From Octopus vulgaris (taxonomy: Eukaryota), in NCBI GenBank assembly GCA_951406725.2, contig OX597815.1, forward strand, positions 210,676,001-210,740,000: a DNA stretch of 64,000 nucleotides. Reading direction: 5' to 3'. This document shows, in pieces, positions 1 to 54,301 of the stretch. The notes beneath the pieces were generated by a model. That model had not been told where the DNA came from. It did not search any database and saw only the letters and a program-made list of their open reading frames with translations. Each line of letters opens with the position of its first letter. Position 1 is the stretch's first letter. The translations under genes and the position numbers were made by a program.

Positions 1-490
1 TAGAAGGGCCTCTCATTTATAGTCTACATGTGACTATCAATATTCTGTTTACCATTATATACACCATCACACATGTGATTATCTGATTTCTTTGTTTTTT
101 TCTTTGCTGTGTCATATTTACTTTAACTCCTTTTATAAGAGATCATTTTATTACATTTCCAAAACTTCACACAAGGATGCATCTATTATGTAACATATTA
201 CCGCTATGAAAATTCAACCTCTAGCTTAAACACCCATGTTTTTAGTGTACGTGGCCATGATATCTATCTTGCTCAGTTTTCAAGTAAATCTAAGGCATCT
301 TAGGTTTGTTACATCTATCTAGGCAAAGGTTAGGATTTTTCTGCATTCAAGTTGCAGAATAGAAATGGCGAAAATTATACGATTAAGTAGAATACTGCTA
401 AATGTAGATATCTTGAAATAAACTATAACGTACACCACGTTTTGGTACCTTTTAGAAAAGTGCTGAGTGCCATGAAGATAGAATATACGC

Positions 491-43303: not shown

Positions 43304-43603
43304 ACAATTGCAGCGTGGAAGGTGTTATAAGCCATTCAAGAAACATACAAAATCCGTTAGATTCACTTCAGCATTTAAATTTAAGTTTTCAAAAAATTGC
43401 GTGCTGCACGGAATTTTGTCAGTGAACAGGTCGCGGCCTCAAAGCGACGAACATATTTTGACAAATTAAATTTAAATGTTGAAGTAAATCTAACGGATTT
43501 TGTGTGTTTCTTAAATGGCTTATAAGCACCTTCCACGCTGCAAATGTTTTCGTTTCAGCACACGATCTCAGGTCAAATTACTTGCTATGCGAGTACATCT
43601 CCG

Positions 43604-43606
<3 letters not shown>
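43304..43606. mobile_element. Second copy of the hammerhead foldback element (left arm lacks ribozyme part)
   Basis: Closely similar to 53886-54218 including the tail; next to TA/TG microsatellites. Confidence 0.85.
43415..43465 (+). ncRNA. G3-C8 hammerhead motif with GAAA>GAAC lesion
   Basis: tttgtca-GTGAACA-g-gtcgc..gcgac-GAAC-atat-tt-tgacaaa. Confidence 0.55.
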
Positions 43607-47934: not shown

Positions 47935-49063
47935 CTTCAGTAAGACATTCCCTAACGTACATTTCGCCATCTACAAAGATGATGCCCTCGCCTTAACAGC
48001 TAATACAAATGGACCAGCACAAGATCGTTTTAGGAAGGATATTATCCAGTTAATGAAACACTTCGGACTTAGTATAACTATAGACACTAACCTGACGGTT
48101 GTCAATTTCTTAGACGTTTCCTTAGATCTTAATAATAATATTTATAAGCCTTATAGGAAGCCCAATGATAGACTAAGTTATATTAATGTAGGTTCATGCC
48201 ATCCCCCTATAGTATTCAAAAATTTAGTTAAAAATATTAGTAAGAGGATTTCTAGCCTCTCATCTAATGAGGACATCTTCAATAGCGTTGCCCCAGTTTA
48301 TAATAAAGCTTTAAAAGATAGTGGTTTTAGCGAAAAAATAAAATATACACCTATCACCAGCCCAACAATAAGGAAAAGGAATAATAGAAATAGGAAGGTC
48401 ATCTGGTTTACGCCCCCTTACTCACCCGAGGTGGCCTTCAATATAGGTAAATATTTCCTAGCACTGATAGATAGACATTTTCCAGTTAACCATGCTTATA
48501 GGAAACTCTTCAATAGACACAATTTAAAAATTAGTTTTAGTTCAACTACCAATTTTAAAAACATAATCAATCATAACATACAAAAAACACAAGAAGAAAA
48601 CAGCTGTTCATGCAGGAATAAAGAATTGTGCCCGCTAAATGGAGCTTGCATGTCCAAGACCATCATATATGAAGCTACCGTAAACTCTATAACCACTAAA
48701 GACACCGTTTCGACGAAGAAATACGTGGGCCTGACAGAGGGTAATTTCAAGTCCAGGTTCAATAACCACACTTTGAGCTTTAGGCACTGGAACAAAAGAA
48801 AAGCGACACAATTATCCAATCATATTTGGTCTTTAAGAGATAAAGGTGTCGATTATAACATACAATGGAAGATTTTGGCCAGATGTAAGCCCTATACTAA
48901 CGGCAGCGGAAGGTGCGGTTTATGCGACATGGAGAGATGGCTTATCTGGAAAAGCAGCTTAGACCCTACCACATGTCTAAATACAAGGACAGAGCTTTTC
49001 GGATCATGCCCACATGTGACTAAATTTCTGTTACGTTTTTGGTCCCCTAAAGAAAACGGATAG
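47831..49063 (+). CDS. Chimeric ORF (410 aa): SINE-derived ATG/N-terminus in frame with PLE RT C-half + GIY-YIG endonuclease
   Basis: Stop-free frame from ATG at 47831 inside the SINE across the junction at ~47934; N-terminal RT motifs missing; expression unknown. Confidence 0.45.
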   Translation: MEHRVPGSVPLRRQVSSTIPSDRPNLCEWIWYTETFSKTFPNVHFAIYKDDALALTANTNGPAQDRFRKDIIQLMKHFGLSITIDTNLTVVNFLDVSLDLNNNIYKPYRKPNDRLSYINVGSCHPPIVFKNLVKNISKRISSLSSNEDIFNSVAPVYNKALKDSGFSEKIKYTPITSPTIRKRNNRNRKVIWFTPPYSPEVAFNIGKYFLALIDRHFPVNHAYRKLFNRHNLKISFSSTTNFKNIINHNIQKTQEENSCSCRNKELCPLNGACMSKTIIYEATVNSITTKDTVSTKKYVGLTEGNFKSRFNNHTLSFRHWNKRKATQLSNHIWSLRDKGVDYNIQWKILARCKPYTNGSGRCGLCDMERWLIWKSSLDPTTCLNTRTELFGSCPHVTKFLLRFWSPKENG

Positions 49064-49416
49064 AACATGCTTTCTGTGTTATGTCCCAAGAAGATTTTAT
49101 ATATTTTTATATATTTTTATATATTTTTATGTATTTTTATATAATTTTTATGACGAAAAATGCGAGCGATGTATAAGTACGCAGGCAAAGCAGAGTTATA
49201 ACAGAGTAATTTCCCTTCATTTTTAACGGTATTTTTTCATAACGTTTTCAAATAGCCAGATAACCGAAGAGATGGTGTTGTGGATTTCCACTTCGGCATC
49301 TGAAACTCAGAGTTTTATCTTGACTACCGAGTAATGTAACATATTGTATAGATAAATTTCCTCTATTTACATAATATTGAGGTCTCTTTCTTTCTTTTGT
49401 TATCTTACCGTTTTAT

Positions 49417-49418
<2 letters not shown>
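47935..49418 (+). mobile_element. 5'-truncated Penelope-like retroelement (RT C-half + GIY-YIG + 3' pLTR with hammerhead), possibly Naiad-like clade
   Basis: ORF 47780-49063 has YKDD (47972-47983), 'VNFLDVSLDL..YKPYRKP', thumb, 'CSCR..CPLNGAC', GIY-YIG 'IIYEATV..YVGLT..FKSRFNNH', 'CGLC..E..I..LN.R.E..CPH'; AT-rich 3' region with hammerhead; ends in (TA)n. Clade assignment is inference. Confidence 0.92.
49258..49320 (+). ncRNA. Type I hammerhead in PLE 3' pLTR
   Basis: Helix I agataa/ttatct; CCGAAGA; helix II gatg..gtgga/tccac..catc; GAAA; ctc-a-gag; GUU site. Confidence 0.75.
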
Positions 49419-49492
<74 letters not shown>

Positions 49493-52682: not shown

Positions 52683-53648
52683 CGCTTGTGTCAATAGTAT
52701 CAACAATCTCAGCAAGGACGATATATTTTTACGATTGTGCTGCATTATTACTCACCGATATATGAATCTTATAAATATGTCAAACAGTTCTACTTCCAAA
52801 AACAAAGAAAAACAGAAAAAAAGAAAAAATCTGTTGTTTATATTAGGCTACGCAATATTTCTGCAGATATATTCCATTGACAAATATATTTCCATCCTAC
52901 TCAAGGACAAAATATACAAACTATGGAAACACATTATCTCATTATTTGTATTTCACAACCCCTTACACTTTTTGATTTGGAAACTTAGTCTGTTATTTAG
53001 ATGTTATTTCCAGTTTTAAATGGATTCATTTGAATGTTTATATTGTCTTATTCATCCAAAGATAACAAAAGCGAAATAATAACAGGAAAATTCTGTCCTA
53101 AAATTATTTTACCTAAACCTCCAAATAGGCATATATTTGCACGTTATGCACACACACACACACACACATTTATATATACATGTGTATGTACGTGTGTTTA
53201 TGATGTATGCTTGTATGTATCTGTGTATTTGTATTCATGTATGTATGTGTTGTTCAATTTTACACATTCCTGAACAACAAAGTCAATGAAAATATTGGAG
53301 TTATTTCATGTTGTTGGAAAGATAACTATTTTGAAAGAATAAAGAAAGATTTATTCTCTAAGCCATAATGCTTCCAAAATATTTACAAAGCGATAAATTC
53401 CATTCAGAAGCATATTTTCCATTGAAGAATTACTCTAGCCAAGTTAATGCATTGAATTCCCTGTGTTTCATTGTTTTATCATGTAGCTTTAGATTTTTAA
53501 CAACCAAATTTGAACAAGGGAGATAGATGTTGGCGAAATGAACAGAAATTATATATTTTATCCATCCAAGATGAATCACCTCTATAGTATGTTTACTACC
53601 CTACAAAAGTCACCTACGAAATCAGAAAAGACATATATATATATATAC

Positions 53649-53697
<49 letters not shown>

Positions 53698-53785
53698 TAT
53701 ATACATATATATATACATATATACATATATATATATATATACACATATATATATATATACATACATACATACATACACACATACG

Positions 53786-53885
<100 letters not shown>

Positions 53886-53960
53886 CAGCGTGGAAGGTGT
53901 TTGTAAGCCGTTTAAGAAACACACAAAAGCCGTTCGATTCACTTCAACATTTAAGTTTAA

Positions 53961-54011
53961 TTTGTCAAAATATTTTCGTCGCTTTAAGACTGCGACCTGT
54001 TCACTGACAAA
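53961..54011 (-). ncRNA. Type I hammerhead ribozyme, G3-C8 variant (inverted arm)
   Basis: Reverse complement of the 54030-54080 motif with one loop II difference. Confidence 0.7.
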
Positions 54012-54029
54012 AATCCATGTTGCATTTTT

Positions 54030-54080
54030 TTTGTCAGTGAACAGGTCGCGGTCTTAAAGCGACGAAAATATTTTGACAAA
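54030..54080 (+). ncRNA. Type I hammerhead ribozyme, G3-C8 core variant
   Basis: Helix I tttgtca/tgacaaa; core GTGAACA; one extra G then helix II gtcgc/gcgac; GAAA; palindromic helix III atat; site UUU. Confidence 0.72.
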
Positions 54081-54215
54081 TTAAACTTAAATGTTGAAGT
54101 GAATCGAACATTTTGTGTTTTCTTAAATGGCTTACAAACACCTTCCACGCTGCAATTGTTTTCGTTTCAGTACACGATCTCAGATCAAGTCACTTGCTAT
54201 GCAAGTATATCTCCG

Positions 54216-54301
<86 letters not shown>

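Follow-up and report, generated by a model that had tools for sequence, protein, structure and literature searches.

What kind of element forms the foldback at positions 53886-54217 of this Octopus vulgaris DNA (the window, meaning the whole stretch of 64,000 nucleotides analysed), and what is to be made of the hammerhead-like motif carried by both of its arms? A reading made from the sequence alone had described inverted arms of about 125 bp lying in (TA)n, and the layout is as it proposed: a palindrome extends from 53886 to 54152 and is followed by a one-sided extension to 54217, the arms measure 128 bp, and both ends abut (TA)n. Alignment of the arms to each other spans 128 columns, of which 4 are mismatched and 3 gapped, and the foldback gives a folding z of -27.8. 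The left flank (53632-53885) is a (TA)n-rich target and the right flank (54218-54270) a (TA)n target, the target duplication not being readable within the repeat. Alignment to the parental pLTR at locus L299, which is discussed below, shows that the two arms are unequal. The left arm (53886-54025, minus strand) is an inverted leader of a Penelope-like element (PLE) covering about +3 to +140 of the PLE unit, with a short 3' end and a complete G3-C8 hammerhead motif; the right arm (54030-54217, plus strand) covers +16 to +205 and has the long 3' end with a tail. This one-sided tail of about 60 nt (54159-54217, plus strand) lies between the two preferred 3' ends of the unit, at about +147 and +205, that are evident from the bimodal distribution of ends among copies. 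The window holds a second insertion of the same family at 43304-43605, with a left arm of about +52 to +147, inverted, and a right arm of +4 to +205; it is probably a decayed copy, since its GAAA box has a point change. A scan for prokaryotic promoters, which is not relevant to this DNA, gave no match.

The complete type I hammerhead topology with a G3/C8 core that had been claimed for each arm was found in both. In the right arm, motif reading and the family alignment place the minimal motif at 54030-54080 on the plus strand. It consists of a 7-bp helix I (54030-54036 with 54074-54080), the core GUGAACA with G3 at 54037 and C8 at 54042, a 5-bp helix II (54045-54049 with 54059-54063), GAAA at 54064-54067 and ATAT at 54068-54071 -- the palindromic helix III, 6 nt long, occupying 54067-54072 -- and U16.1 and U17 at 54072 and 54073, with cleavage predicted after U17. 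A G inserted between A9 and helix II, at 54044, had gone unmentioned in the sequence-only reading. The mirror motif in the left arm, located by a motif search in the window, lies at 53961-54011 on the minus strand with its G3 at 54004. Helices I and II are present along with G5, A6, A9, G12, A13, A14, the A15.1-U16.1 pair and H17, while the literal CUGANGA box is absent from the family motif. Three matches to the hammerhead motif were detected in the window, versus none in 100 shuffles. Rfam gave no hammerhead match at E<=10 (its 58 other matches were mostly to hairpin miRNA models, none at gathering score), in agreement with the earlier expectation that standard searches would miss the motif.

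In the predicted fold of 54030-54079 helices I and II form, at -13.0 kcal/mol. Pairing of G3 with U17 extends helix I (-13.7 kcal/mol, versus -12.4 unpaired) and is a possible inactive trap. The corresponding G3-C17 pairing is predicted to be stronger, at -15.9 kcal/mol, which fits a remark in the accessible part of PMC3884650 but is not specific to this family, as the youngest copies of a sister family also have U17. The helix III palindrome is 6 nt long in young copies and 4 nt in an old subfamily; when a dimer of the motif was cofolded, the helix III dimer did not form in that prediction. The pLTR hammerheads of metazoan PLEs, as presented in the available text of PMC4209133, are likewise of type I, with an unpaired base between 9 and 10.1, a G10.1-C11.1 pair, a palindromic helix III, a pLTR location, and many single or opposite-strand copies. 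Unlike the set given there, which includes the Schistosoma U3-A8 form, the octopus motif has G-C as its 3-8 pair and a longer helix I (7 bp), and its inserted base is G where that consensus has H.

The repeated unit is a terminal repeat, consisting of pLTR and ORF start, that belongs to an autonomous RT–GIY-YIG Penelope-like element. Sequence upstream of the unit, running through a branch point, pyrimidine tract and YAG, is retained in 506 copies; in such extended copies a microsatellite-rich 3' UTR of about 1 kb lies upstream of the unit, preceded by the RT-GIY-YIG ORF. The longest parent open frame is 1,025 aa, and no single copy was recovered intact from ATG to stop. The parent protein P0122 (997 aa) scores 25.5 bits for its C-terminal GIY-YIG against the Pfam cut-off of 22.6, while the evidence for its RT is a YVDD motif and RT-labelled homologs, Pfam RVT_1 having given no score. 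At the tandem junction of L299 the tail runs through an ATG equivalent to window position 54127 and on into the ORF for 129 codons; junctions of this type recur in L268/L269 (the same locus), L278 and L279, and such partial tandems form pLTRs that overlap the ORF start. From this junction and the window translation, 54127-54217 (plus strand) comprises codons 1 to 30 of the parent's RT-GIY-YIG ORF, starting MAYKHLPRC. Because the L299 tail reads on into the ORF, the unit is not non-coding, contrary to the earlier claim. The PLE origin proposed at the same time is upheld, as is the expected autonomous partner with the same terminus, while the proposal of a non-autonomous, retrozyme-like family gives way to the finding that the unit is the parent's own pLTR and ORF start and that head-to-tail arrays are nearly absent among the first 100 listed places of each search.

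The link between short copies and parent extends to the loop II variants of the hammerhead motif, eight of which, the window's included, occur with the parent's upstream sequence. At L414 the window's variant is present in a pLTR that, with nearly all of the 3' UTR, is joined in inverted orientation to an RT segment showing 98% identity to the parent; among the 22 copies with an upstream ORF on the same strand, 21 carry another variant than the window's, a count partly biased by the search. On the basis of its RT motifs, which we take to be those of the Nematis clade, together with the linker C-X3-C-X2-C that precedes GIY-YIG in P0122 and meets the pattern CX2-5CxxC, the parent probably belongs to Nematis. 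A quick tree, drawn without named references, separates it from the genome's other PLEs. Among named homologs the best is a hypothetical protein of Octopus vulgaris (58%), which is nearly identical to a sister family in the same genome. The CX2-5CxxC linker is described in the accessible portion of PMC8557442 as common to Nematis and Neptune. A metagenome scan yielded 2 short relatives ending at or within the ORF, with the hammerhead region not covered.

Other PLEs were also met in this genome. A 5'-truncated Hydra-like PLE (the clade label is from motifs) lies in the window at 47940-49420; all 150 of the 150 scored matches to it are 99-100% identical over 146 aa, other copies contain a 717-aa open frame, and the 3' end, at about 49258-49320, bears a hammerhead-like motif whose position 4 is C, as in the 5 other loci listed. 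An abundant PLE represented by L111, L114 and related loci has two overlapping frames of about 479 and 781 codons with an overlap of about 78 nt, the second in the -1 frame, so that a programmed frameshift is possible; its 3' end shows a U3-A8-like hammerhead core with a weak helix I, and a UTR with CCAAT/TGACGTC repeats. The 3' ends of L126 and L127 belong to another PLE family, whose hammerhead-like motif combines a C in position 4 with the palindrome GTAC. Hammerhead core variants seem common among the PLEs of this genome. The sister PLE of L310, L311, L313 and related loci is very young and has a 1,312-codon frame with an N-rich insert; its hammerhead now carries A9C through drift, and the youngest copies U17 as well, one copy, L425, being canonical. 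As candidate parents of the unit, a 781-aa GIY-YIG family was rejected, its ends sharing no DNA with the element, as was the Hydra-like family, which has a different terminus. A 3.4-kb tandem at C2:171.24 Mb, considered as a possible array of units, looks from the one repeat unit read like a local duplication with flanks.

The number of copies, and whether GTGAACA is fixed across them, were the questions which the sequence-only reading had left for a genome-wide search. Exact matches to a 17-mer spanning the core number at least 6,746 in the 2.8-Gb genome, versus 1 for a control, and the 3' anchor of the unit has 8,653 matches. With the flanks unchanged and any base but G allowed at position 3, 236 matches were obtained, and 1 of the first 100 listed has C3-G8. 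(T3 with G8 was seen in 9 of these 100 first-listed matches, above expectation for two independent point changes; of the two that were inspected, only one belongs to the family.) For a sample of 99 arms, collected via the 3' anchor from C1, where about 98 of the first 100 places were retrieved, G3-C8 is present in 62 of the 70 arms that span the whole motif and C3-G8 in none. Within hammerhead arms the mean non-consensus is 0.26 for loop II plus N7, 0.03 for the core and 0.05 for the stems, with 0.065 in the 3' flank, and differences between subfamilies inside the hammerhead are concentrated in loop II.

An older subfamily, with 72-95% local identity to the query copy, has G3 in 19 of 33 and C8 in 26 of 35 decayed arms, so that its majority also carries the swap. 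Old and young subfamilies differ at N7, in loop II, in palindrome length and in the distal pair of helix I (G-C versus U-A); they are identical at 13/13 core positions, 23/24 stem positions, 5/9 loop positions and 102/129 flank positions, the conservation of core and stems relative to the flank having p = 0.006, or 0.028 if the compensatory helix I pair is counted as two changes. In the sister PLE family the 3-8 pair is C3-G8, with a homologous, compensated helix II; its main subfamilies have A9C, while its copy L425 is fully canonical, with CUGAUGA and C17. The 3-8 pair is Watson-Crick-compatible and covaries, as G-C in the young and old subfamilies and as C-G in the sister family. Judged from these comparisons of sequence, the G3-C8 swap is a natural covariation, the sister PLE family having C3-G8, and an old and stable variant; the compensated change claimed earlier, C3>G with G8>C, is upheld as genuine and fixed across the family. 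The unit is also present in contigs from runs bearing three other organism labels, with no core variant at >=3%; coverage is thin at that end and the labels are coded, so that this carries little weight. In the literature, as far as the accessible texts go, G3-C8 hammerheads appear as engineered forms and no natural one was seen, though Lunse et al. or supplementary lists could include one; the engineered C3G/G8C change gives partial rescue in a PLE hammerhead (PMC11167929, in the part available), and a natural U3-A8 variant has already been described (PMC4209133 and PMC3088659, from the parts available). The accessible part of an octopus repeat annotation (PMC13282606) leaves hammerheads unmentioned.

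How the copies are built can be seen from their ends. The 3' ends of the 99 arms are bimodal, with 42 at +144..151, 56 at +198..209 and 1 at +155. The 3'-anchor sample resolves into 84 insertions, 47 of them inverted and 37 single-armed; a foldback, real as its arms are in the window, is thus one of two common outcomes rather than the design that defines the family. Among the 47 inverted insertions, 43 combine a long with a short 3' end, 1 is short plus short, none is long plus long and 3 are unclear. (TA)n flanks accompany 52 of the 84, and target duplications of 9-14 bp are found for 20 of the 32 others. One duplicated locus accounts for six of the 84: at L334, L375, L376, L379, L380 and L383 on C1 the same inverted insertion, its junction and flanks identical, adjoins a Hydra-like 3' end and has been copied at least 6 times within a larger unit. 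The 5' ends of the arms are at -5..+12 in 42 cases, +13..30 in 21, +31..52 in 9 and +53..68 in 7, with 10 further 3' and 10 upstream; some of the upstream starts are alignment overruns into simple repeats, and one arm was counted twice. Thus 63 of the 99 begin at -5..+30, the 5' ends clustering just upstream of helix I, and most copies contain the intact hammerhead motif rather than starting at the predicted cut. Position +1 is included in 47 arms, 13 of which run on into genomic sequence; in the 34 non-genomic starts (one duplicate among them) a G stands at -1 in 24, with -2 random or mixed, and about 8 of these 24 extra Gs could reflect microhomology with the inverted arm. Same-strand pairs within 1 kb number 1 in the first 100 listed 3'-anchor places and 0 in the first 100 core-17-mer places. 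In L009, L014 and L027 the inverted arms end at, or close to, the 3' strand of helix I; in L009 the sequence passes directly to the leader, so that the ribozyme core is deleted, likely by a template switch across helix I.

In the anatomy of its insertions the family resembles Adineta Pen2a (PMC3846280) and the endonuclease-bearing PLEs of Craig et al. 2021 (PMC8557442), which according to the accessible parts of those papers form head-to-head inverted pLTRs and solo pLTRs, with an optional tail that codes for the ORF start and target duplications of 8-10 bp. It is unlike them in that pLTR-only insertions dominate in the octopus, by the thousands, and in its tail length of about 60 nt versus 30-40. 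The PAc element (Poseidon, Anolis carolinensis; Frangieh et al. 2024, PMC11167929) is similar, as far as its available text shows, in having a hammerhead followed by two preferred 3' ends that fall within the ORF start, a tail between these ends, AT-rich targets and uncut RNA as the main template; in PAc both target strands are cleaved and extended, and the RT starts at the two internal sites that define the tail. It differs in that C3-G8 is the natural PAc pair and the swap was engineered there, and in that about 55 nt separate the predicted cut from the downstream ATG in the octopus element, whose protein linker is C-X3-C-X2-C.

The window element is an ordinary PLE stub insertion, and a host function is not indicated. 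With good confidence it may be taken as an inverted double copy of a PLE leader, likely twin-primed from mRNA, whose natural G3-C8 variant is likely a weak ribozyme dependent on a dimer or on protein. As proposed here, transcription of a tandem copy would begin at an A that precedes helix I by about 15 nt, and the transcript would be capped; the ORF protein would nick AT-rich DNA on both strands, and each nick would prime cDNA at one of the two internal sites (about +147 and +205), as in vitro for anole PAc. The cDNAs would then reach the cap, gain an untemplated G, and join either each other, giving a foldback, or the other target end, giving a single arm; the majority of templates would be uncleaved, with the ribozyme cutting a minority only. 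Under such a model the long and short ends should face outward and the insertions should be the size of stubs, which matches what is observed. Reverse transcriptases can copy a cap as an extra G, as is known from work on L1.

The fixed 5' end may, all the same, reflect splicing rather than a cap. The context of +1 is a textbook splice acceptor, with a strong branch point, a pyrimidine tract and a YAG conserved as CAG or TAG at +1/+2, and in PMC4209133, in the part available, the Penelope intron ends at helix I; an origin by splicing from a very short upstream exon would nonetheless call for a shared exon, and none was found beyond one G. Alternatively, the inversions might come from antisense self-priming, as proposed for rotifer PLEs in the accessible text of PMC3846280, which does not predict the long-plus-short combination seen in 43 of 44 resolved pairs. 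Splicing or self-priming, taken together, is considered unlikely. Still less probable is that the short copies are an independent non-autonomous retrozyme-like family whose RNA, transcribed from short loci, would be processed by the ribozyme, perhaps circularised, and mobilised in trans. Short copies do outnumber ORF-linked ones (8,653 anchor matches versus the 506 with upstream extension), several loop II subfamilies are without an ORF-linked copy in the sample, and retrozymes have been proposed as PLE derivatives (bioRxiv 10.64898/2026.07.22.740005, in its available part; PMC6765202, likewise available in part, is a further source for PLE and retrozyme features); as described in that preprint, non-LTR retrozymes share with the octopus unit its short length, abundance, type I hammerhead and relationship to PLEs. 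Unlike them, the octopus unit is without tandem arrays (head-to-tail pairs being nearly absent among the first 100 listed places of each search), ends within the coding start of its parent, and has an autonomous parent with the same terminus; moreover the copies begin upstream of the predicted cut, and the eight loop II variants linked to the parent's upstream sequence include the window's. A DNA MITE or foldback transposon, which the near-perfect palindrome in a TA target might suggest, has next to no probability and was rejected: 37 of the 84 insertions have one arm only, the arms differ in length, target duplications range from 9 to 14 bp, there are no fixed terminal inverted repeats, and the unit overlaps a retroelement ORF. 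The case of a MITE lacking a PLE partner, which the sequence-only reading had named as fatal to its own proposal, accordingly does not hold.

Twin priming from a largely uncut mRNA, the reading preferred here, leaves the question of whether the motif cuts at all. It is possible, if doubtful, that the hammerhead fold survives as a relic that does not cut, serving just upstream of the ORF start as an RNA structure for protein binding or translation control, with G3-C8 conserved for structure alone. The uncut motif is retained in most copies, and among the 99 arms 5' ends do not accumulate at the predicted cut (7 at +53..+68); A9C is tolerated in the sister family, and in its main subfamilies suggests, from sequence, weak constraint on catalysis in that lineage; G3·U17 pairing is favoured in folding; and the PAc hammerhead, according to the accessible text of PMC11167929, cuts only with protein and is dispensable for insertion in vitro. 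Against this, all the other catalytic positions are kept between the old and young subfamilies, and helix III is palindromic at both of its lengths. Genome-wide, 10 (TA)n junctions lie at the predicted cut or one base before it, 8 of them exactly at the cut, versus 5 near one control site, none exact; the totals are alike (p = 0.30), and the excess at the exact site (p ~0.03, with a conservative expectation and small numbers) is a weak hint of cleavage. On the self-silencing dsRNA and possible ADAR substrate put forward in the sequence-only reading, contigs of the one run guessed to be RNA have three A>G sites, the same as in the DNA runs.

A bolder version of the preferred reading -- that a stable natural G3-C8 hammerhead, in which U17 would avoid a G3-C17 trap, cuts a minority of PLE mRNAs, and that the stubs record twin priming on capped sense mRNA -- is put forward tentatively, as somewhat short of probable. 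Whichever way this falls, descriptor searches based on CUGANGA miss thousands of motifs in this one genome, and the octopus family completes a natural covariation series for the 3-8 tertiary pair of the hammerhead: C-G is canonical, U-A natural, and G-C, in the literature as far as accessible, was previously a laboratory mutant. The origin of Penelope inverted repeats and tails is treated as an open question in the available parts of PMC3846280 and PMC11167929, and the anatomy of the octopus insertions, with long and short ends in 43 of the 44 resolved inverted pairs and an extra 5' G, provides a testable model for both. If the tentative version is true, the thousands of stub insertions in this octopus would be a genome-wide record that settles how Penelope inverted repeats and tails form.
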